Part shown: positions 952-61,637 of the stretch, in pieces
Numbering within the stretch: position 1 is the stretch's first letter
How the letters are laid out: each line of letters starts with the position of its first letter
NCBI GenBank assembly: GCA_002441425.1
Contig: DJWB01000001.1
Span: 224,602 to 288,601 of the forward strand
Length of the DNA: 64,000 nt
Direction of reading: 5' to 3'
Source of the DNA: Patescibacteria group bacterium UBA6241
GTDB taxonomy: Bacteria > Patescibacteriota > Minisyncoccia > Phycocordibacterales > Phycocordibacteraceae
Notes under the pieces: model-generated
What the model was told of the DNA's origin: nothing
Seen by the model: only the letters and a program-made list of their open reading frames with translations
The model's database searches: none
Position numbers and translations under genes: made by a program

Positions 952-1848
952 ATGATTGCAGAATTTCCAAACTTTAAGAAAATTGAACTTTCAGACAAAG
1001 AAAACGTTGATGCTCTCACAAAGGAATACCCTCCTTATTCTGATTTTGAGTTTGGGAGCCTTTGGGCATGGGATGTTAAGGAGGAGATGGCCTTATCTGT
1101 GCTTAATGGAAACCTGGTTGTTAAATTTACGGATTACACGACAGGGAATCCATTCCTAGCATTTTTAGGGAAGAACAAGGTTACCGACACAGCACGTGAA
1201 TTGCTTTCGTACTCTAAGAAAAATGGCTTTGAAGAGACACTTCATCTTATTCCAGAAACTGTAGCGAAGGGTCTAGACAAAGAACTCTTCTCTATTGAAG
1301 AGTCTCGGGACCATTTTGATTACGTGTGTGATATTAACCGTCACATAGAATACCCAGGGAAAGAGCTTAAATCCCAAAGGAATCTCCTTAAGATATTCAA
1401 GGATGCGAGTCCTGATTTTGAACAGGTATCTCTCATGATGGATACCAAGGAAGCACAACAAGAAGTTGTTGGTGTCTTGCGACGGTGGACTGAAGGCAAG
1501 GGATTTATTACAGATAGCGAGGCATTCGCATACGATCGTTTTATTTCAGGTGCATCATCACTTTCATACTCAGCGGTTGGCATACGCGTTGGCGCAGATC
1601 TTGTCGCATTCCATATTGTTAGTCTTCCTCCTGGGAATTGTGCGAATGCTCTTTTTGGCAAGGCTGACACCTCATATCGTGGTGTATACGCTGCTTTAGA
1701 TCATGTTGTGGCGAGAGATCTCCTTTCAAGAAATTATACACACATGAACATACAGCAAGATCTGGGAATAGAAGGTCTGCGAGCAGCAAAGCTTTCACTA
1801 CATCCCTCGCACCTACTTAAAAAGTATTCTGTGAGCTTGCTTGCATGA
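952..1848 (+). CDS. DUF2156 / aminoacyl-phosphatidylglycerol synthase (MprF C-terminal domain)-like protein, standalone soluble form
   Basis: About 298 aa with no TM segment. The C-terminal stretch DLGIEGLRAAKLSLHPSHLLKKY resembles the MprF synthase-domain end (FDLGVG...GLRRFKNKFAPEWRPHY). The N-terminal FEFGSLWAWD resembles the LFLYHWW region. Sits next to lysS. Confidence 0.5.
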   Translation: MIAEFPNFKKIELSDKENVDALTKEYPPYSDFEFGSLWAWDVKEEMALSVLNGNLVVKFTDYTTGNPFLAFLGKNKVTDTARELLSYSKKNGFEETLHLIPETVAKGLDKELFSIEESRDHFDYVCDINRHIEYPGKELKSQRNLLKIFKDASPDFEQVSLMMDTKEAQQEVVGVLRRWTEGKGFITDSEAFAYDRFISGASSLSYSAVGIRVGADLVAFHIVSLPPGNCANALFGKADTSYRGVYAALDHVVARDLLSRNYTHMNIQQDLGIEGLRAAKLSLHPSHLLKKYSVSLLA

Positions 1849-1873
1849 AGCTGATACACTAACTACTACATAT

Positions 1874-2791
1874 ATGACTTGGTTTCTAATTTCCCTCATT
1901 GGTCCGTTCCTGTACGCGATGACCAATTTTATAGATAAGACACTTCTTGAGAAGTACTTCAAGAGTGGAGGAGTGGGTACACTTCTTATCTTTTCTGCAC
2001 TCCTTTCAGGACTAGCACTTCCAATTCTGTTTCTTTTTGACCCCACAGTGTTTAGCGTTGGTCTTTTTAACATCTTAGTATTGGCCGCTGTTGGAATACT
2101 TAATGTGTTGGTTCTGTTCTTTTATTTAAAGGCTCTAGAGGATGAAGAGGCCTCAATTACAGTTGTTTTCTATCAGCTTGTTCCCGTATTTGCGTACGGA
2201 CTGGCCTACTTTATTCTTGGGGAGAGTCTTACCACAATTCAACTTATTGCTATGGCAATAGTTATATTTGGTACCTCTATCATTTCATTTGAGGTAGACA
2301 CGGAGAATAAGTTTAAGCTTAGGACGAAGACCATATTTTATATGGTCTCAGCGTCTTTCTGCTGGGCATTGGGATCAGTTATTTTCAAGGCCGTAGCTCT
2401 TGAAGAGCAGGTTGTGAGATCGCTTTTTTGGGAGCACCTCATGCTCACTATTATAGGTATTGGCCTATTCTTCTTTGTTCGTACCTACAGAGAGCATTTC
2501 ATTATCGCTGTTCGGCAGAACTCTGTGGCTATCTTCTCTCTCAATGTACTTAACGAGACACTGTACATGCTAGGGAACACTATATTTGCATTTGCATATC
2601 TGCTCGGACCAATAGCAGTAGTTCTACTTGCTGAGTCGTTCCAGCCTCTCTTTGCAATTCTTATTGGTGTATTTATGACAGTGTTCTTTCCTAGAATCAT
2701 TTCTGAAAAGATACATATTAAGCATCTGTGGCAAAAGGGAATCGCATTTGCAGTTACCTGCCTAGGAACCTACTTGCTATTTGCCTTTTAG
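1874..2791 (+). CDS. EamA/DMT-family membrane transporter (10 TM)
   Basis: Polytopic hydrophobic profile. Contains the EamA-like segment YLKALEDEEASITVVFYQLVPVFAYGLAYFILGESLT. The ATG at 1874 is the first ATG; the tool ORF begins at a TTG at 1841 that overlaps the upstream stop. Confidence 0.6.
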   Translation: MTWFLISLIGPFLYAMTNFIDKTLLEKYFKSGGVGTLLIFSALLSGLALPILFLFDPTVFSVGLFNILVLAAVGILNVLVLFFYLKALEDEEASITVVFYQLVPVFAYGLAYFILGESLTTIQLIAMAIVIFGTSIISFEVDTENKFKLRTKTIFYMVSASFCWALGSVIFKAVALEEQVVRSLFWEHLMLTIIGIGLFFFVRTYREHFIIAVRQNSVAIFSLNVLNETLYMLGNTIFAFAYLLGPIAVVLLAESFQPLFAILIGVFMTVFFPRIISEKIHIKHLWQKGIAFAVTCLGTYLLFAF

Positions 2792-2859
2792 TTTATCTAC
2801 ACTGTCAAAGATTGCGACCGCTAGGCCTGCTATAGTGAGTGTAAACGAACACGTATCCC

Positions 2860-3231
2860 ATGGGATTTAAAAAGCATCCAATTCTTTACATCATCTTGCC
2901 GCTTTGCGTTATTGCTATCGTGGCATCCTTTTACAGGTTTATGGTCCTTCGGGATTATATGGTTACTTATGAGGGCGTCTGCGATCCAGCTACACACAGC
3001 TGCTTCCTAGCATGCGTGGATGACTCTTGTTCAGAAACCTACTATTACTCTTTAGTACAAAAGAGAAGCCAAGATGTGATGGCTCAGTGCGGCCCCGATA
3101 TTACTGATTGTGAGCTCGCAAGTGTGTGCGTGGAATCTGACAGAGAATGCTCAATTGAGTACTGTGATTCTTCAGTAGATACTTGTGTTGGAGGCAATGC
3201 TCCAGCACCTTTGGAACTTATGCCTCAATAA
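2860..3231 (+). CDS. Small N-terminally membrane-anchored cysteine-rich protein (hypothetical)
   Basis: N-terminal TM helix followed by about 14 Cys in 90 aa. Lies immediately upstream of a sensor kinase. Confidence 0.35.
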   Translation: MGFKKHPILYIILPLCVIAIVASFYRFMVLRDYMVTYEGVCDPATHSCFLACVDDSCSETYYYSLVQKRSQDVMAQCGPDITDCELASVCVESDRECSIEYCDSSVDTCVGGNAPAPLELMPQ

Positions 3232-3233
3232 GT

Positions 3234-4874
3234 ATGATCTGCCACTATTTCCCAGAACCCCTTTATTTCTTTTACGTAGCTGATCTACCGGGGATTCTTT
3301 ATTATTCCCACATTCCTGCGATTATTTTGGCTCTATTAACAGGAGTTTTTGTACTCCTGAGTGACAGACACTCTCTTCTTAACAAGCTTCTTTTTGGACT
3401 CTGCCTTTCTTTCTCGTTATGGTCTCTCGGAACCCTTATCACATGGACAAACATTCATAGCGATATTCTTCTTTTTGTATGGTCTTTCCTTGGACCAATC
3501 GCAGCATTCATATCAGTACTTTCTATCTACTTCACATATGTTTTCCTGCAAAAGAAAGATGTGGGTCCAAAGCTAAAAGCCATCTTCATAGCACTGCTTG
3601 CGCCGATTCTTGTCTTTGCTGCGACTCCGTACACACTAAGCGGGTTTAATCTGTCAGTGTGTGATGCCTTTGGGTTTGAAGGTCCTGCAAATACTATCTA
3701 TTACCCAGCCCTAGGAGCTGTTGCGCTAGTTTGGATACTTATTCTTTTGATAAGACACTACTACAAAGCCCCTAAAAGCTTTAAATCACAGATCGTAATC
3801 ATGGGAACAGGAATTGAGCTCTTTCTCTTCTCATTCTTCACTATTGGCTTCTTGGGAACTTATTTAACAACTACAGGATTCTTGCCTGACTCTCAGATTG
3901 AGACCTATGGGTATTTCGGGATGATTGTGTTCATGGTCTATATAGGAGTGCTTATAGTTAGGTTTAAGGCCTTCCATGCTGGGCTTATTGCCGCACAAGC
4001 TCTCATTGTTGCGCTCATAATTCTTATTGGTGCTCAGTTCACCTTTGCGAGAAGCACAACCAATCTCACCTTGAATGCAATTGCGTTCTTCTTGACCACT
4101 GTTATTGGATACATTCTCATTAAAAGCGTTAAACGAGAAATAGAGCAGAGAGAGCACATTGAGTTGCTCGCAAAAGATTTGGAGAAATCTAACAGCCAAC
4201 AGATTATCCTTATTCATTTCATTACGCACCAGATTAAGGGATTCGTCACAAAGTCGCGAAACATCTTTGCAACAGTATTGGATGGAGATTATGGAGCCGT
4301 TCCCGAGTCTGTTAAGCCAATGTTGCAAGAGGGTCTCAATTCAGACACAAAGGGTGTTGCGACAATTCAAGAGATTCTTAATGCAGCAAATATTAAGAGT
4401 GGAAAAGTTACGTACGAGAAGCAGGAGATTGACCTTAAAGAACTTGTTGATTCTATCGCAGGGGAATTGAGAGCAAACGCCGACAAGAAAGGACTTACGT
4501 TTACGGTTGAGACTGGAGATGTTCCACTTATGTATTCTGGAGATCGCATGCAGCTCACTAATGCATTTAAGAACCTTATAGACAACTCAATTAAGTACAC
4601 ACCTTCTGGAGAAGTACATGTTTACTTAAGTGAAAAAGAAGGAAGAGTCCACTTTAGAATTACTGATACTGGTGTAGGCATTACCTCAGAAGACATGGAG
4701 CATTTGTTTACTGAGGGAGGACACGGCAAAGATTCTGCGAAGGTAAACGTTGAATCCACAGGATTTGGTCTCTACATCGTGAAGAATATTATTGAGGCTC
4801 ACCACGGGAAGGTCTGGGCTTCTTCAGATGGCGCCGGGAAGGGGGCAAGCTTCATTGTTGAGCTCCCGAAGTAG
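3234..4874 (+). CDS. Membrane sensor histidine kinase (multi-TM sensor domain, HisKA + HATPase_c)
   Basis: About 8 N-terminal TM helices. H-box HFITHQIKGF. G-boxes DTGVGIT and GFGLYIVKNIIEAHHGKVW. The ATG at 3234 follows the upstream stop at 3229-3231. No adjacent response regulator is present. Confidence 0.7.
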   Translation: MICHYFPEPLYFFYVADLPGILYYSHIPAIILALLTGVFVLLSDRHSLLNKLLFGLCLSFSLWSLGTLITWTNIHSDILLFVWSFLGPIAAFISVLSIYFTYVFLQKKDVGPKLKAIFIALLAPILVFAATPYTLSGFNLSVCDAFGFEGPANTIYYPALGAVALVWILILLIRHYYKAPKSFKSQIVIMGTGIELFLFSFFTIGFLGTYLTTTGFLPDSQIETYGYFGMIVFMVYIGVLIVRFKAFHAGLIAAQALIVALIILIGAQFTFARSTTNLTLNAIAFFLTTVIGYILIKSVKREIEQREHIELLAKDLEKSNSQQIILIHFITHQIKGFVTKSRNIFATVLDGDYGAVPESVKPMLQEGLNSDTKGVATIQEILNAANIKSGKVTYEKQEIDLKELVDSIAGELRANADKKGLTFTVETGDVPLMYSGDRMQLTNAFKNLIDNSIKYTPSGEVHVYLSEKEGRVHFRITDTGVGITSEDMEHLFTEGGHGKDSAKVNVESTGFGLYIVKNIIEAHHGKVWASSDGAGKGASFIVELPK

Positions 4875-27962: not shown

Positions 27963-27982
27963 CAACCTCCCCTACCTAAAAC

Positions 27983-28014
27983 AAAAGACCCGCATAAAGC
28001 GGGTCTTTTGTTTT
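27983..28014. terminator. Bidirectional hairpin terminator between rpmA and rplI
   Basis: Sequence aaaagacccgc-ataa-agcgggtcttttgtttt. Confidence 0.6.
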
Positions 28015-28026
28015 ACTACGCGCTTC

Positions 28027-34378: not shown

Positions 34379-34984
34379 ATGAGAGATCGTATTGAAGACC
34401 TCGCTCATGCCTTTACGAGATTCCCTGGAATAGGACCTCGCCAGGCGAAGCGTTTTGTATACCATCTGCTTTCAGCCCCTCCCCAGGAGCGCGCACGTCT
34501 TGCAGACCTTGTCCTTAATCTTTCTAACGACATTCGCCAGTGCGGACTCTGCATGCGCTTTGCGCAGACTAATAGCGAGAACCTCTGTATGTATTGTGCG
34601 GACACACACAGAGATGATTCAGTCCTCATGATTGTAGAGAAGGACCAGGATGTTGCTGCAGTTGAAAGAGCAAACACCTATAAAGGCAGATACTTTGTGT
34701 TGGGCGGCGTACTCACCCTCTCAGGCAAAGGAACTATTCGCGAACGAGAGCTTGTACGCATTGTTGAGTTGCGTGCTGCCTCTGGACTCTCTGAAATTGT
34801 ACTTGCCCTCTCAGCAACGTCTGAGGGAGAGCATACTGCAGACCGTGTTCGCCAGATCCTGACACCGTTGCGTGGTCCTATGACTCTTACAGAGCTTGGA
34901 AGAGGCCTCTCAACAGGTGCTGAGCTTGAATACGCTGATTCCACTACCCTTTCCGAAGCGCTTCGCAATCGCAAGGAGACCTAA
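34379..34984 (+). CDS. recR: Recombination protein RecR
   Basis: HhH motif FPGIGPRQAKRF, zinc finger CGLC...CMYC, Toprim domain. Confidence 0.9.
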   Translation: MRDRIEDLAHAFTRFPGIGPRQAKRFVYHLLSAPPQERARLADLVLNLSNDIRQCGLCMRFAQTNSENLCMYCADTHRDDSVLMIVEKDQDVAAVERANTYKGRYFVLGGVLTLSGKGTIRERELVRIVELRAASGLSEIVLALSATSEGEHTADRVRQILTPLRGPMTLTELGRGLSTGAELEYADSTTLSEALRNRKET

Positions 34985-35016
34985 TCAAAAAAGACTCCCT
35001 CGGGAGTCTTTTTTGA

Positions 35017-35346
35017 TTACTTGATTGCGTCAATCTTTACTTTGACGTATGGCTGGCGGTGTCCGCGGCGCTTCAAGTAGTTGCTCTTTGCTTTGTACTT
35101 AACAACCTCTACTTTCTTTGCGCGTCCTACAGACTGAACAGTTCCAGTAACTGTCTTTCCTGAGACTGTTGGAGTTCCGAGAGTAAGTGTACCGTTGTCG
35201 GTCATAAGCACCTGATCAAAAGTAACCGTATCTCCCTTCTTCAGGTCCTGAGTAGCAGCACCCCGACCGAGTTTCTCAATCGTAACGGTTGCGCCGGGAG
35301 CAACCACATACTGCTTTCCACCGGTCTTTATAACTGCGAGTTCCAT
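35017..35346 (-). CDS. rplU: Ribosomal protein bL21
   Basis: N-terminal MELAVIKTGGKQYVV. Confidence 0.9.
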   Translation of the reverse strand: MELAVIKTGGKQYVVAPGATVTIEKLGRGAATQDLKKGDTVTFDQVLMTDNGTLTLGTPTVSGKTVTGTVQSVGRAKKVEVVKYKAKSNYLKRRGHRQPYVKVKIDAIK

Positions 35347-40918: not shown

Positions 40919-40922
40919 CGTG

Positions 40923-40950
40923 AAAAAGCGCCACAGGGCGCTTTTTCTTT
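40923..40950 (+). terminator. truB hairpin terminator (agcgcc-acag-ggcgcttttt)
   Basis: Read from the sequence. Confidence 0.6.
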
Positions 40951-40951
40951 G

Positions 40952-41111
40952 GTGAGGAATTACTTACCCTCGCGCGAATCTACTTCGAGAATATTTAGCC
41001 CTCTCACGCCTCGCGGACTCGCGCTCGGGGTTGAATGCATATCTGATTTCTGAATTTAGGAGGGGGGTATGAAAAATGCATTCGGGAAATAAACAGCCCG
41101 GGGCTGTTTGG
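40952..41111. repeat. IR1 left copy (about 160 bp)
   Basis: About 90% identical to the reverse complement of 42982-43158. Begins with gtgagga. Confidence 0.85.
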
Positions 41112-41201
41112 TATTAAGAAAATGTCGCGAGCGCGGCTGGTATTCTGAGGAGAGGATATGAAGCAAAAATCTATGTATCGTGAGGAGTTTTATGAAGAAC
41201 T

Positions 41202-42944
41202 ATGATATATACTTCCTATATCGCCTTAGCTTCACGGAATTCAACCATGTCAAATTTTAACGGTGCTCCGAGACAGTCTGATCCTCTGAAACAGGAGCAG
41301 TTCAATTCTGCGGAAGACAGCGCTTTCGACCAGGCGCGTGAACGCGTCCTTGCGAGAAATAGAGACTTTGTAGAAACCGACAAAAACAGAGAGGAATCAT
41401 TCTCTGCACCTCGAACCGTTCAGGAAGAGCAGGATGATATAGAATGGAAAAATTTGCTCCTAAACACCGAAGCTACACTCGGGAGCATTGGTAACCCAGA
41501 CCAACGTAAGTTACTACAAGCAAACCCTGTTATGGCAAATGATGCTACGTATTTCTTAGCATCACAGACTTCGAGCTGGATAGATAGTAGGCATCTTGCC
41601 AAGAATATTCCTGACGATGTTCAGGAAGTGTGGAGGAGTGCGGAAAAGGATGACCGAAAACTTTTTGTTGAGACCGGTAAGCGCCTTTATCCTGAAGTGG
41701 AGCTTTCGTCTAACAATGTTGATACGATTTTTGGAACCCTTAAGAACGATGCCATGAAGTTCAGTAGCAAGGAACTAAAAGATTGGCTTCAAGATTTTCC
41801 TGTGCATGGAGCTGCCAACAGTTCCATGAATGGAAGTCCTGATAAGTTCCTAAGTCAGGTTGAATCCTTTATTCAAAGAGGAGCGGACAGTATCGGGAGA
41901 GCACGCAAGAGCAGTGACCCTGTTACATCAATGGAAATCGCAGCCGTTGGAAAAGGTCTATACGCGCTCGAACTACTCAGACAAGATCTGGAGCAACGCG
42001 TCCAAGAGAGAAAGGAGCCAAAAATTCAACATGGTGCTCTTAATACTGATGAAGAACTTCGTCGCAAAGCTGCGGAGCTCAGTAAATTAAATATTAGTGG
42101 AGAAATGAGCGCAGACACCAAGGCAAAACTTGAGGCTCACAGAGCAAAAATGGGGCTGTCTGTTTCTCCCGAAGTGCAACAAGGAATTCCAGTTTCTGAG
42201 GTAGACCCAGTTCGACCAGAAGCTACCTCTGAAGAGCATCCAAACACCCCGCAAACGCCAGGAGAAAAATTCTTTGCAGCGAAGGAAGCGGAACTCAAGG
42301 GAAACATCCAGAGCTTCTTTGAAGAGGAGAACGCGGAGTTCTCAAAAGTAGAGGTAAGCGGTCCTGCTTTTGTTGAGAATCCTGAAAAGCTTGAGATGAA
42401 GAAGGATTCGCTTCAGAGGGCTGAAGCACTCGTAAAAAGACTTCTCGATCCTAAATCTGCTGAAGACATCCGGGACAACTGGTTGGAGAATATAGACGAG
42501 ACAAATAATCTTTCGCAGTTTTTTACTAATGCGCTGACAAAAGAGATTCAGGGCAGCAGAACTGCGCCAAAGGAAGGAGGCAGTAGGAATATTGCCAGCT
42601 CTCTATTTAAGGAAATCATTCACAAGCGCCTGTATCCTTACCTGTCACCGTTGCCGCCTGCAGCTACCCTAAGTTCCAGAGGATTCGAACAGTTTAAAAA
42701 CCCCGCTCTTAAATACTGGGGAGAATCACTTACTAATGATGGTTTGACGGTTAACGAACCGGAAGCCCTGTTAGAAAAACTTGAAAGTGCGATTACTCAC
42801 GCCGCAAGTCAATTAGAGCTCGCACAGAGCGATACAGTGAATCCTCCTACCTCACTGGAATTAAGAATGGTTGGAGAACGCATTTTAGGCATAGAGCTAC
42901 TTAGAAGTGCCATAAAACAAAAACTTGAGCTTAGGAATCAGTAA
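41202..42944 (+). CDS. Large acidic hydrophilic protein of unknown function (580 aa), cargo bracketed by IR1
   Basis: Long ORF with no TM segment and no recognisable catalytic motif. Glu/Lys-rich helical character. The alternative start is Met16. Confidence 0.5.
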   Translation: MIYTSYIALASRNSTMSNFNGAPRQSDPLKQEQFNSAEDSAFDQARERVLARNRDFVETDKNREESFSAPRTVQEEQDDIEWKNLLLNTEATLGSIGNPDQRKLLQANPVMANDATYFLASQTSSWIDSRHLAKNIPDDVQEVWRSAEKDDRKLFVETGKRLYPEVELSSNNVDTIFGTLKNDAMKFSSKELKDWLQDFPVHGAANSSMNGSPDKFLSQVESFIQRGADSIGRARKSSDPVTSMEIAAVGKGLYALELLRQDLEQRVQERKEPKIQHGALNTDEELRRKAAELSKLNISGEMSADTKAKLEAHRAKMGLSVSPEVQQGIPVSEVDPVRPEATSEEHPNTPQTPGEKFFAAKEAELKGNIQSFFEEENAEFSKVEVSGPAFVENPEKLEMKKDSLQRAEALVKRLLDPKSAEDIRDNWLENIDETNNLSQFFTNALTKEIQGSRTAPKEGGSRNIASSLFKEIIHKRLYPYLSPLPPAATLSSRGFEQFKNPALKYWGESLTNDGLTVNEPEALLEKLESAITHAASQLELAQSDTVNPPTSLELRMVGERILGIELLRSAIKQKLELRNQ

Positions 42945-42981
42945 ATCGAACCTTCCATTCAAAACTATAAGGTGGGAATTT

Positions 42982-43158
42982 TCCACAAAGCAGCCCGAGA
43001 CATTGTCTCGGGCTGCTTTGTTCCCGAATGCATTTTTTCATACCCCCCTCCTAAATTCAGAAATCAGATATGCATTCAACCCCGAGCGCGAGTCCGCGAG
43101 GCGCGAGAGGGCTAAGTATTCTCGAAATGGGTTCGCGCGAGGGTTAGGAGTTCCTCAC
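42982..43158. repeat. IR1 right copy (inverted), includes an extra 12-bp-stem palindrome
   Basis: Hand alignment to 40952-41111 in reverse complement. Confidence 0.85.
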
Positions 43159-43283
43159 AAAAAGATACTTCCTCGGAAGATAGTTCGGAATACAATCCCG
43201 CCCATGGCGGGATTGTATTCATTTTCGCGCGCAGACGCGCGGCATTCTCAGACGGCGGGGATACTCTGAAATGCATGGATTTG
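43155..43283. repeat. IR2 left copy (129 bp) containing a 33-bp perfect palindrome (43188-43220) and a GC palindrome (43226-43241)
   Basis: Identical to the reverse complement of 44719-44847. Confidence 0.9.
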
Positions 43284-43330
43284 CACTTCTCTTTCGAGCC
43301 ATACCGTCGCAAGTGATACCATGCAAAGAT

Positions 43331-44875
43331 ATGGCACCGAGATATTTTCTCTACGCGCGCAAAAGTACCGAGCCGGACGACAAGCAAGCGATGAGTATTC
43401 CGGCGCAGCTCGTTGAGTTGCGAGAGTTCGCGCGGAGAGAAAACCTGAATATTGTCAGTGAGTACACTGAATCAAAAAGCGCAAAGACACCGGGACGCGA
43501 TGTGTTTGGCGATATGATGATGCGTCTTGAGCGCGACGAAGCCAACGGAATAATCGCGTGGCATCCCGATAGGTTGGCGAGAAACAGCATTGACGGTGGG
43601 CGCATCATATACGCCGTAGACACGGGCAAGATCGTGTCGTTGCGCTTTCCGACATTCTGGTTTGAACCCACGCCACAGGGTCTATTTATGCTTCAGGTGG
43701 CGTTCGGGCAGTCCAAGTACTATTCAGATAACCTCGGCGAGAACACGAGGCGTGGGATGCGGCAGAAACTGCGTAGAGGCGAGTGGCTCACAAAAGCGCC
43801 GTTCGGGTATACCAACAACCCTAAAACCCGCAATATCGAGCCGGACGCGGTAAAAGCAAAAATCATCGTTCGCGCTTTTGACGAGTACGCAACCGGAAAA
43901 TATACGCTCGTTTCCATGGCGCAGTTTCTCCAAGACCTCGGCATCACGACCAAAGCCGGAACACAGCTCGGCAAAGCGTCCATAAAGCGCATTTTGACGA
44001 ATCGTGCATACCTCGGCTTTACGAAACACCTCGGCGAATTCTTTCCCGGCTCGTTCGCTTCGATTATCACTTCAACGCAGTTTGAAGCGGTGCAAAATAT
44101 CCTCGCAAAACGCGAGCATCGCTACAAACGCCGTCAAAGGAACGATTTCCCGTTTACCAATCTTTTTCGCTGCACTGAGTGTACGTCTATGTACACGGCG
44201 CAATGGACAACTGGAAAATCTGGCGGACGCTATCGCTACTACCGTTGCACGAAAAAGAAAGGAAACTGCACATCAGGCTATGTGCGCGAGGATATATTGC
44301 TCGCGCAAATTCAAGAGCGGATCGAAAGCATCTCGCTTCGCGATAGGCATACGGGCTGGATGTTGAACAAGGTGGACGAGTGGGAGCGCAAAGAAAATAG
44401 TTCCAACGGGAGCGAGATACAAAATCTTTCTTCCAAGATATCAGCGAGCGAAGAGCGCATGGACAAACTGGTTTCCGCATACCTGGACGGCGATATCCCC
44501 AAGCCAATCTATTTGAAGCGGAAAGACGAAATTATGCGCGCTCTCGCCTCGCTGAACGAAGAAAAGAAAGATTTCGAGAACGGAAAGAAAAAGTGGGTCG
44601 AACCCTTGCGTGCGTGGGTTCTAGACACCAAACAAGCCATGGAATTGAGTTCGTCCGACAACTTGCACGAAATCTCCGCTTTCGTCAGGAAGGTCGGAAC
44701 GAACCCCCGTATTGAATACAAATCCATGCATTTCAGAGTATCCCCGCCGTCTGAGAATGCCGCGCGTCTGCGCGCGAAAATGAATACAATCCCGCCATGG
44801 GCGGGATTGTATTCCGAACTATCTTCCGAGGAAGTATCTTTTTGTGACCTCACGGGGAATCGAACCCCGATTTGA
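43331..44875 (+). CDS. Large serine recombinase (resolvase catalytic domain + recombinase domain + zinc ribbon + coiled coil)
   Basis: N-terminal YFLYARKSTEPDD...SIPAQ catalytic Ser region, Cys cluster CTECT...YRCTKKKGNC, and a coiled-coil tail. The ATG at 43331 is internal to the tool ORF. The ORF reads through IR2 and 30 nt into tRNA-Glu before its first stop, so the true C-terminus is uncertain. Confidence 0.8.
   Translation: MAPRYFLYARKSTEPDDKQAMSIPAQLVELREFARRENLNIVSEYTESKSAKTPGRDVFGDMMMRLERDEANGIIAWHPDRLARNSIDGGRIIYAVDTGKIVSLRFPTFWFEPTPQGLFMLQVAFGQSKYYSDNLGENTRRGMRQKLRRGEWLTKAPFGYTNNPKTRNIEPDAVKAKIIVRAFDEYATGKYTLVSMAQFLQDLGITTKAGTQLGKASIKRILTNRAYLGFTKHLGEFFPGSFASIITSTQFEAVQNILAKREHRYKRRQRNDFPFTNLFRCTECTSMYTAQWTTGKSGGRYRYYRCTKKKGNCTSGYVREDILLAQIQERIESISLRDRHTGWMLNKVDEWERKENSSNGSEIQNLSSKISASEERMDKLVSAYLDGDIPKPIYLKRKDEIMRALASLNEEKKDFENGKKKWVEPLRAWVLDTKQAMELSSSDNLHEISAFVRKVGTNPRIEYKSMHFRVSPPSENAARLRAKMNTIPPWAGLYSELSSEEVSFCDLTGNRTPI
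44719..44847. repeat. IR2 right copy (inverted); its last 3 nt overlap the tRNA-Glu 3' end
   Basis: 129/129 identity to 43155-43283 in reverse complement. The palindrome sits at 44782-44814. Confidence 0.9.
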
Positions 44876-44916
44876 TCCGTGAGAGGGATCTGTCCTAACC
44901 GTTAGACGATGAGGCC
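44845..44916 (-). tRNA. tRNA-Glu (anticodon CTC), no encoded CCA
   Basis: Hand-built cloverleaf: acceptor ggcctca/tgaggtc, D-arm identical in layout to E. coli tRNA-Glu, anticodon loop ctCTCac, T-loop ttcgatt. Confidence 0.85.
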
Positions 44917-51609: not shown

Positions 51610-51687
51610 TGAATACTTCCTTCCATAATTGAACGCGTTGCTGAGTATGTGAGAAGCTTCTGCTTCTGATAGAAAGAACTTCCTACC

Positions 51688-51733
51688 CTAGAAAAAGCGC
51701 GAGACCCATTGCTGGGTCTCGCGCTTTTTCTAG
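51688..51733. terminator. Perfect 20-bp-arm palindrome (ctagaaaaagcgcgagaccc-attgct-gggtctcgcgctttttctag), bidirectional terminator
   Basis: Read from the sequence. Sits between greA and the GC-rich cassette. Confidence 0.6.
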
Positions 51734-51885
51734 GAGTTTCTCTATCCAGAAATTTTACGCAGTGACCCAGGCCCTCTTCATAAAGAGAGTCCATAGGACA
51801 ACCACGTAAATCTGCTGGAAATAAGTCACCTAGTAACCTTATACCCAAAAAGAACCCTGTCAATAAGGGTTCTTGGGATAAATTC

Positions 51886-61588: not shown

Positions 61589-61637
61589 AGAGACAGCTTG
61601 AATACTAAAGGCCCGCTATATGCGGGCCTTTAGTATT

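Follow-up and report, generated by a model that had tools for sequence, protein, structure and literature searches.

A conserved hairpin within the inverted repeats of a candidate serine recombinase element at a Patescibacteria tRNA gene

The window analyzed here is a 64,000-nucleotide (nt) stretch of contig DJWB01000001.1 from Patescibacteria group bacterium UBA6241. It carries the gene of a large serine recombinase (LSR), convergent with a tRNA-Glu(CTC) gene and flanked by a perfect 129-nt inverted repeat (IR2; 43155-43283 and 44719-44847), the arm sequence of which we call X. The right X arm shares 3 to 4 nt with the 3′ end of the tRNA gene. To the left, a second inverted repeat (IR1; 40952-41100 and 43009-43158, 92% identical) encloses an open reading frame (ORF) of 580 amino acids, ORF580, and its right arm, region A, abuts the left arm of IR2. 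Each X arm contains a 33-nt palindrome, GAATACAATCCCGCC-CAT-GGCGGGATTGTATTC, with arms of 15 nt and a center of 3 nt. An earlier note on this DNA had pointed out the palindrome and its inverted copy, and had proposed them as core sites of the recombinase, between which the intervening segment would invert. The palindrome itself was confirmed: it is present exactly at 43188-43220 (+ strand) and as its reverse complement at 44782-44814, where the center on the + strand is ATG instead of CAT, and it was matched in 0 of 100 dinucleotide shuffles. A second GC palindrome, cgcgcg-caga-cgcgcg, also lies where that note had placed it (43226-43241, mirrored at 44761-44776), although it follows the 33-mer by 5 nt and not by the 6 nt given there. 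Both 33-mer copies are parts of one IR2, and the two copies are not independent events. Within the 64-kb window, no further copy of the 33-mer or of its 15-nt arm was found with fewer than 3 mismatches.

The predicted protein of 514 amino acids matches the resolvase (PF00239; E = 2e-21), Recombinase (PF07508; E = 8e-13), and Zn-ribbon (PF13408; E = 1e-10) domains. It contains the YARKST motif, and residues R10 and S12 are invariant in 30 homologs. By domain content it is an LSR, and one remote from those characterized: the best match in the PDB was the SPbeta integrase (E = 1e-11), and the CcrB and XisF models scored far under their cut-offs. The family is large, with 6466 proteins at E <= 1e-20 among 8000 candidates tested, and the best matches are 60 to 88% identical. 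No relatives were found in IMG/VR with either the single protein or a 30-sequence alignment as the query, and a viral origin of the element was set aside on this result. We did not find a published description of the element family in the literature, our coverage of which was incomplete and is no proof of novelty.

We compared the window with 80 loci from GTDB species representatives (contigs are designated by L numbers and proteins by P numbers). The LSR gene was flanked by an inverted repeat in the same register as in the window at 74 of these loci, the full-length repeats being 110 to 148 nt long and mostly 98 to 100% identical. In the related loci, the left X arm ends 14 to 84 nt (mostly 30 to 65) ahead of the LSR start codon, and the right X arm spans the last ~105 to 170 nt of the LSR ORF. 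A convergent tRNA gene (Glu, Ser, Arg, Leu, Gly, or Pro) abuts the right arm in at least 65 of the 80 loci and a codirectional one in none; one possibility is that transcription driven from the tRNA destabilizes the codirectional state. Where enough upstream sequence was available, region A, the 160 to 290 nt to the left of the left X arm, was repeated as a near-perfect inverted copy 1.1 to 5.2 kb upstream. The cargo between the A copies differs wholly by locus and includes a HAL-like lyase, an ABC transporter, an OLD-like ATPase, methyltransferases, and unknown proteins. With rc for reverse complement and O for the core described below, the general layout is rc(A) - cargo - A/O/X - LSR - rc(X)/rc(O)/tRNA, and the window is a typical member.

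The positions of the recombination sites could be read from the 25 loci in which all three junctions are present. These read A/O/Y, A/O/X, and tRNA/O/X, where Y is unique host DNA, and the only part common to the three is the core O of 4 to 5 nt. The core is made up of tRNA nucleotides, namely the final two bases of the acceptor stem, the discriminator base, and the C that follows it (in some cases with an A as well), and at all three sites it varies with the tRNA type (TCAC for Glu, CCGC for Ser, and GCAC for Arg, Leu, and Gly; window cores are listed in Table 1). This is the pattern of attR, attP, and attL that would be expected after recombination of an attP (A/O/X) with an attB (tRNA/O/Y). 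The element of the window is also present, 99.9% identical, in contigs L109 and L117; the host DNA beside it is different there, and the change from element to host comes precisely at the GTGA of 40952-40955. In L001, the LSR side is 99.7% identical to that of the window, whereas the adjoining Mur ligase gene is only 73% identical. Sequence next to the core is conserved, both in nt 1 to 17 of X (tCaCA.a.aGAAACTTC) and in the last ~40 nt of A (...GAAataaGTTCGcGCAAAGG.tA..Atttca). Region A and the tRNA T-arm have a GTTCG motif in common, which starts 24 nt from the junction in 33 of 37 A arms and, on the tRNA side, 18 nt from it in 38 of 38. In published serine integrase sites, the outer motif of attB half-sites lies 4 to 5 bp nearer the center than that of attP half-sites (PMC11722253); the offset of 6 bp seen here, the bacterial side being nearer, has the same direction and a similar size. 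The GTTCG motif may be the zinc-ribbon contact. The predicted empty attB, GAGGTCAC/CAAAGAAAAAGCGCC, was not found in JGI metagenome contigs by one exact-match search, a weak negative for the assignment of the LSR and its att sites. The junction comparisons point to 40952-44847 as a 3.9-kb integrative element that the LSR has inserted at the 3′ end of tRNA-Glu. Judged from the sequence comparisons, its design is attR, cargo, an inverted internal attP, LSR, and attL, in this order, and it is widespread in Patescibacteria.

The claim that the recombinase segment inverts was borne out by the finding of both orientations. After inversion in the window, the LSR ORF would run into rc(A) and not into the tRNA, and would encode 539 amino acids ending in ...SFCEELLTLARTHFENT. 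A protein of exactly this predicted sequence is present in a public collection (P0121). Its contig, L117 (ENA ERZ27247358; MEGAHIT k141; 4162 nt), comes from another sample and reads O-X-LSR(+)-X′-O′-A′-ORF580(-)-A-O-Y, with primes for inverted copies and a different host Y; it is the window's element, 99.9% identical, with the LSR segment alone inverted. Because the 129-nt arm is shorter than the k of 141, the junction adjacency in L117 should be supported by reads. Flipped segments were also found in L090 (the P0084 element), which reads tRNA(+)/GCAC/X-LSR(+)-X′-O′-A′, and in L092 (protein P0057, a different element), which reads tRNA-Ser(+)/CCGC/X-LSR(+)-X′-A′. The segment can invert because X flanks the LSR gene as a perfect inverted repeat, and the LSR ORF stays intact in either orientation.

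Inversion could result from LSR action at two cores or from RecA-type homologous exchange between the 129-bp arms. L092 is a hybrid (1640-3700) in which the tRNA-side X arm and the LSR body are like those of L023, L031, and L035, and the other X arm and the A arm are like those of L034; the parentage switches ~12 nt inside the inner end of X. This switch points to homologous exchange between related elements. In arms that have diverged, the mismatches are spread without a step at the hairpin, and the attempt to map the crossover from such arms gave no position. Both the L092 switch and the scattered mismatches would fit homologous exchange and gene conversion on the repeats. The left arm of L091 (1-119 versus 1449-1567; P0084 element) extends ~85 nt further into LSR antisense sequence than in sister contigs; therefore, the inner repeat boundary moves, which would fit gene conversion. 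Three contigs, L087 to L089, have A/O/X on both sides of the LSR gene, as would an excised circle bearing a pair of inverted attP sites. We did not accept these "closed" contigs as proof of free circles, given that a mixture of two inversion isomers could yield the same assembly path.

The C termini of the LSR family (P0001 to P0120) fall into two kinds. The last ~10 codons of the window's LSR (CDLTGNRTPI; 44848-44875) are antisense to the tRNA T-arm and acceptor stem, and this "tRNA-antisense" kind contrasts with an "A-antisense" kind (..ARTHFE..), the latter seen in 13 of the top 120 LSR homologs. Because the C termini fall into these two antisense kinds, the protein tail reports the orientation or junction of its contig.

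From the core inward, region X consists of the core, the conserved half-site AAAAAGATACTTC, a small hairpin, the 33-nt hairpin, the second GC hairpin, and, in antisense, the codons of the LSR C terminus. Of 67 distinct X arms, 65 have a perfect GC-rich hairpin at the matching place. With the center set near nt 50, counted from the core, Watson-Crick pairing reached 73%, compared to at most 43% at any other center. The hairpins represent 47 distinct sequences, with arms of 6 to 15 nt and loops of 1 to 8 nt (3 nt in 51 cases), and in a few subfamilies the center lies at 41 to 42. In an alignment of 39 hairpins, 65.6% of the cells were paired (29 to 43% with slid partners), and the covariation score was 0.274 (0.065 to 0.109 with slid partners; reached in 0 of 500 shuffles). 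Both sides had changed in 8 of the 11 inner pairs, and the two arms of L021 differ by a compensatory change from C-G to T-A; compensatory variants were also seen in the second GC hairpin (Table 1). Because the LSR protein consensus is almost wholly undefined ("x") across the hairpin codons, selection acts on the structure of the nucleic acid rather than on the peptide. A position that is fixed, combined with free sequence and a variable loop, is the signature expected of a nucleic acid hairpin and not of the crossover site of a conserved recombinase.

The form and placement of the 33-mer resemble those of transcription terminators in the same DNA. The window contains 16 perfect hairpins with arms of at least 9 nt, compared to 1.3 in shuffles, and 12 of these are intergenic. 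Those at gene 3′ ends are 33 to 48 nt long with an AT-rich base and a GC-rich top, and the 33-mer is built alike; the tRNA-Tyr gene in the window has such a terminator directly 3′. The earlier note had also advised looking for the 33-mer elsewhere. A degenerate search with the stem core returned 22 contigs, of which only L109 holds the same element, and the other 21 are unrelated metagenome contigs in which it occurs as terminator-like A-tract/stem/T-tract hairpins, one of them 4 nt past a tRNA-Ser gene. As RNA, the tRNA-Glu trailer folds into a 15-bp stem with a 6-bp GC top and a 3-nt loop (-41.7 kcal/mol; z = -5.0). The 3′ arm is AUUGUAUUC, and AUUUUC stands directly past the stem in the direction that enters the LSR module from outside. 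The right copy lies 30 to 62 nt past the tRNA-Glu 3′ end, and the left copy lies 3′ of ORF580 and 5′ of the LSR gene. Elsewhere in the window, long perfect palindromes with arms of 15 to 22 nt (e.g., 27977-28015, 34982-35019, 51687-51734, and 61601-61637) appear to be bidirectional terminators.

We consider it somewhat more probable than not that the palindrome is a stem-loop module of the ~130-nt X arm of the integrative element, at which DNA is neither cut nor rejoined and which would insulate against or terminate transcription. For the window, this insulator or terminator role of the 33-mer is the most likely one, held with about even confidence. It is a weaker proposal for the family as a whole because most subfamilies are without a T-tract. 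In the proposed mechanism, hairpins 33 to 65 nt inside each core, facing outward on both sides, would stop or insulate incoming transcription. The left copy would keep read-through from ORF580 out of the LSR gene, and the right copy would end the tRNA-Glu transcript before it runs antisense through the LSR gene. A native hairpin in Y represents the original sequence 3′ of both tRNA-Glu and truB and would originally have served both genes. It is now separated from the tRNA by the element, and the right copy of the 33-mer would replace this terminator, displaced by the insertion to 40922-40947. With tRNA-Glu separated by the insertion from the terminator that was its own, the right copy is well placed to end the tRNA transcript.

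Several observations weigh against this interpretation. A simple consensus terminator scan did not call the 33-mer, which is followed by only 4 T in the 8 nt past the full stem. A T-tract past the hairpin is confined to the window's subfamily, most others having none or having it on the other strand, so that classical intrinsic termination cannot be the family-wide role. The right hairpin copy also lies inside the LSR reading frame. The innermost 4 to 6 stem pairs (CGCC...GGCG) are nearly invariant, as they would be in a palindromic protein-binding site; stem stability, relatedness, or protein contact may each account for this, and we make no choice among the three. Finally, the identity of the two arms prevents the inversion crossover from being located within IR2, which leaves room for a role of the hairpin in inversion.

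An alternative that we regard as unlikely is that the hairpin acts in RNA other than as a terminator, either as a 3′-end stabilizer or processing signal (of the tRNA trailer or the LSR mRNA) or as a brake on translation of the LSR tail. In its favor, the structure is kept without a T-tract in most subfamilies. Among the 47 distinct hairpins, C(GNA)G triloops number 17 on the X strand and 6 on the complementary strand, a modest bias confounded by relatedness, which hints that one strand, as RNA or single-stranded DNA, is functional. However, the window hairpin is followed inward by a T-run, like the host terminators.

Somewhat less probable still is a role of the hairpin as a DNA element accessory to the att sites, either a cruciform or a binding site for a protein of the host or of the element, that serves synapsis or the control of direction, comparable to res II/III or an enhancer of small serine recombinases. 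In most of the family, the hairpin keeps a constant distance of ~47 bp from the core, and the GC core is nearly invariant. A GC hairpin also lies across the core, at -35 to -75, in 26 of 44 A arms, so that attP is often bracketed, and recombination of attP-like with attL-like sites, which would be unusual for a serine integrase, might need extra architecture. Nevertheless, the variable loop and arm lengths are ill suited to a fixed protein footprint, and the A-side hairpins, which have no set position, are lacking in the A arm of the window. We know of no large serine recombinase that uses accessory sites. The sites of serine integrases span 40 to 50 bp (PMC11722253).

Returning to the palindrome as a stem-loop module, the role first proposed for it, as the LSR core site at whose center strand exchange between the inverted copies flips the recombinase gene, is very improbable. 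Two identical inverted copies do flank the LSR gene, the segment does invert by a crossover that is not mappable within identical arms, and the inner stem CGCC/GGCG is nearly invariant in the family. However, all mappable junctions between host and element lie at the TCAC-type core, at the outer ends of IR2 and IR1; the earlier note itself had named the outer IR1 ends as an example of another location for the sites. The palindrome begins 33 nt inside the core. Known LSR half-sites are ~20 to 25 bp long, and its start lies beyond such a half-site. The hairpin varies in sequence, arm length (6 to 15), loop (1 to 8), and sometimes position (center at 41 to 42) among relatives whose LSRs are 60 to 88% identical, whereas the conserved site-like sequence adjoins the core, and the hairpin has no motif in common with the conserved half-sites GTTCG and GAAACTTC. 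The dyad axis of a 15-3-15 palindrome passes through a base, and serine recombinase sites are centered on a 2-bp overlap, so that an odd center of 3 nt is unfit for a 2-bp staggered cut. The diverged arms have no discontinuity at the hairpin, and the sole mappable hybrid junction (L092) is near the inner end of X. On the junction mapping and the variability among relatives, we reject the palindrome as the point of crossover. An assembly artifact or functionless chance duplication, which might be suspected from the many public contigs that break at the repeats and from "closed" contigs such as L087 to L089 that could be chimeras of two isomers, can be dismissed, because the same architecture and register recur in no fewer than 74 independent loci, which come from many different studies and assemblers, both arms have unique junctions on their inner sides, and the window contig is 608 kb long with the repeats in its interior.

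The features of the element and its surroundings are collected in Table 1. Its neighbors are ordinary chromosomal genes, truB on the left and genes for a Mur ligase and a PBP on the right. An Rfam search of the window matched two tRNAs only, with no match in the A or X arms. A consensus scan of the window called no promoter for the LSR gene; TTGTCA-N17-AATAAT at the inner end of X in L088 was noted by eye only and is not claimed as one. A ribosome-binding site and start codon in the A arm were considered as a general signal for cargo expression and were dropped, being present in the window only and not conserved.

Table 1. Features of the candidate element and adjoining sequence in the window
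Feature	Position	Strand	Basis or remark
Y, native host bidirectional terminator hairpin GAAAAAGCGCC-ACAG-GGCGCTTTTTC	40922-40947		Just beyond left element boundary
Core O (GTGA, reverse complement of TCAC), left junction S1, attR-like A/O/Y, left element end	40952-40955	-	Junction triads; L109/L117 breakpoints
IR1 left arm, inverted copy of region A (92% identical to 43009-43158)	40952-41100	-	Repeat comparison
Cargo ORF, 580 amino acids (ORF580)	41202-42944	+	No Pfam or NCBIfam match
Perfect hairpin, 17-bp arms, terminator-like, 40 nt 3′ of ORF580	42985-43021		Hairpin scan
Region A (IR1 right arm); last ~40 nt, conserved P-type half-site of internal attP-like site (...GAAatggGTTCGCGCgaGGgTTAGgAgTTCC)	43009-43154	+	Junction comparison
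Core O (TCAC), internal attP-like site S2 (A/O/X)	43155-43158	+	Junction triads
IR2 left arm, region X	43155-43283	+	Repeat search
33-nt palindrome, left copy, then ATTTTC	43188-43220		Exact match
Second GC hairpin, left copy, cgcgcg-caga-cgcgcg	43226-43241		Compensatory variants in L007-L013
LSR gene, 514 amino acids from ATG at 43331; last ~52 codons cross right X arm into tRNA antisense	43331-44875	+	Domain matches
IR2 right arm (X′), 100% complementary to 43155-43283	44719-44847	-	Repeat search
Second GC hairpin, right copy	44761-44776		Mirror coordinates within IR2
33-nt palindrome, right copy, inside LSR ORF 3′ end	44782-44814		30-62 nt 3′ of tRNA-Glu end, tRNA strand
Core O (GTGA), right junction S3, attL-like (tRNA/O/X), overlaps last tRNA-Glu nucleotides	44844-44847	-	Junction triads
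tRNA-Glu(CTC), complete, convergent with LSR gene, predicted integration target	44844-44916	-	ARAGORN; Rfam 59.3 bits

Further observations were made on the arms and cargo of the family. Cargo is unrelated even where A, X, and LSR are nearly identical (L031 versus L035; cargo regions of L011 to L085); therefore, cassette-like cargo exchange is implied. ORF580 has no homolog among the cargos of the other loci and no family match. The IR1 of the window is 92% identical, compared to 98 to 100% in most relatives, and the attR copy of its GTTCG motif reads ATTCG (AGATTCG). This may be a sign of decay at the left site of the window, although L109 and L117, where the host surroundings differ, have the identical sequence. 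The GC hairpins at -35 to -75 nt from the core were counted in distinct A arms from L007 to L085 and often read CACGCGC-TCC-GCGCGTG; the attP-like site is thus often bracketed by two hairpins, and the A arm of the window is without one within 130 nt. The motif GCGAGTCCGC, or a close variant, was found in 8 of 42 A arms, including that of the window, at 65 to 142 nt from the core.

Loci L038, L062, and L069 have no tRNA called by ARAGORN, and their right arm abuts a degenerate sequence like the 3′ half of a tRNA (e.g., GTGACCGAATCCCACCGTCT/CCGC); these flanks may be what is left of tRNA genes, or decoy sites. Two copies of the element are present in several genomes (CP060229.1, with L015 and L033; JAJDCJ01, with L014 and L050; CALRGX01; CAZYTF01; SCSN01; JBAXFJ01; CAZTKT01; and CAYXKV01). 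The two copies occupy different tRNA genes within the genome in at least 2 of these (L015/L033 and L014/L050), and the core of each copy is matched to its tRNA type. Public contigs often break in or at the edge of the repeats (L002, L004, L005, L006, and many of L007 to L086), and many end 100 to 320 nt upstream of the LSR gene. Because assemblies often break at its repeats, the element family is a recurrent cause of fragmentation of Patescibacteria bins.

The arms as a whole may be understood in terms of orientation. The X half-site would need only ~25 bp, and the rest of the arm would comprise the hairpins and, on the other strand, the last ~45 LSR codons. In either orientation, the LSR gene would be completed by one arm and shielded by the other, and the A arms would do likewise for the cargo. 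Inversion could occur in place or by way of integration through either attP of an excised circle. This orientation-neutral design suggests that inversion is a regular part of the life of the element. More speculatively, and with considerable doubt, the window may represent a very large undescribed family in which three att-type sites, set in homogenized inverted repeats, make the recombinase and its exchangeable cargo orientation neutral. The recombinase would flip the modules by recombining attP with attL/attR-type sites, excision would release a circle like the 2-micron plasmid with two attP sites, and the hairpins ~50 bp from the cores would be part of the machinery and more than terminators. 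To our knowledge, canonical serine integrases do not recombine attP-type with attL/attR-type sites.

Patescibacteria (the Candidate Phyla Radiation) have tiny genomes with few recognized mobile elements. The LSR family numbers thousands of proteins; it is found beside tRNA genes in dozens of species, with very different cargo between identical arms. If the three-site design is functional, it would constitute a natural device for gene shuttling and inversion in a major uncultured lineage, a source of new compact serine recombinases with defined ~60-bp sites, and a natural parallel to the inverted-attP cassettes engineered for cassette exchange.

Comparison with known systems places the hairpin and the element in different company. 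Like bidirectional Rho-independent terminators, the 33-mer has a GC-rich stem, a 3-nt loop, and shoulders, A-rich on the 5′ side and U-rich on the 3′ side, that lengthen the stem to 15 bp, and it is sited 30 to 60 nt past a tRNA gene and past a protein gene. Unlike them, it has a short T-run (ATTTTC) and one copy inside an ORF, and other subfamilies are without the T-tract. The element resembles the invertible segments of Hin/hix and Gin/gix (the Salmonella H segment contains hin) in that the recombinase gene lies inside a segment bounded by inverted repeats and occurs in nature in both orientations. However, the window enzyme is a 514-amino-acid LSR with Recombinase and Zn-ribbon domains, whereas those enzymes have ~190 amino acids and a C-terminal helix-turn-helix; the repeats here are 115 to 140 nt long and carry putative integration half-sites, whereas theirs are 26 to 34 bp. 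Crossover sites of that type are imperfect palindromes of ~26 bp with a central core of 2 bp, conserved among relatives; the 33-mer has an odd center of 3 nt and is conserved in neither sequence nor loop length. For the element, we saw no evidence of an enhancer and identified no gene that inversion switches.

In the yeast 2-micron plasmid (FLP/FRT), the layout resembles that of the circle deduced from attL x attR recombination, which would consist of LSR and cargo segments split by inverted repeats of ~300 to 430 nt, each repeat with a recombination site and the recombinase in one segment; L087 to L089 show this layout. In contrast, the element has a serine and not a tyrosine enzyme, no replication origin or Rep gene was recognized in it, its cargo varies, and its circle is deduced only. 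Islands that target tRNA genes, including the tycheposons of Prochlorococcus, are also small cargo elements at tRNA 3′ ends in streamlined genomes, with variable cargo. These use tyrosine integrases and have direct repeats that duplicate part of the tRNA, whereas here the recombinase is of the serine type, only 3 to 4 nt are in common with the tRNA, and the repeats are inverted. The inverted attP that the element appears to retain recalls engineered inverted-attP landing pads for cassette exchange.

The serine integrase systems (phiC31, Bxb1, A118/LI, and SPbeta) share with the window the Resolvase, Recombinase, and Zn-ribbon domains and a short core common to the sites. The hybrid junctions follow attL/attR logic in both, and the putative half-site motif of the element is nearer the center on the bacterial side, as in the published sites (PMC11722253). 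Serine integrases cleave with a 2-bp stagger at a central dinucleotide, and an RDF governs their unidirectionality. The LSR of the window is nevertheless only a distant relative of those integrases, and it targets the very 3′ end of tRNA genes. Between attR and attL, the element retains an entire attP-like site in inverted orientation, its arms are long perfect inverted repeats, and phage or conjugation genes are not present. The palindrome alone is ordinary, and its setting is an apparently undescribed element that, as far as sequence comparison can tell, combines features that none of the compared systems unites.

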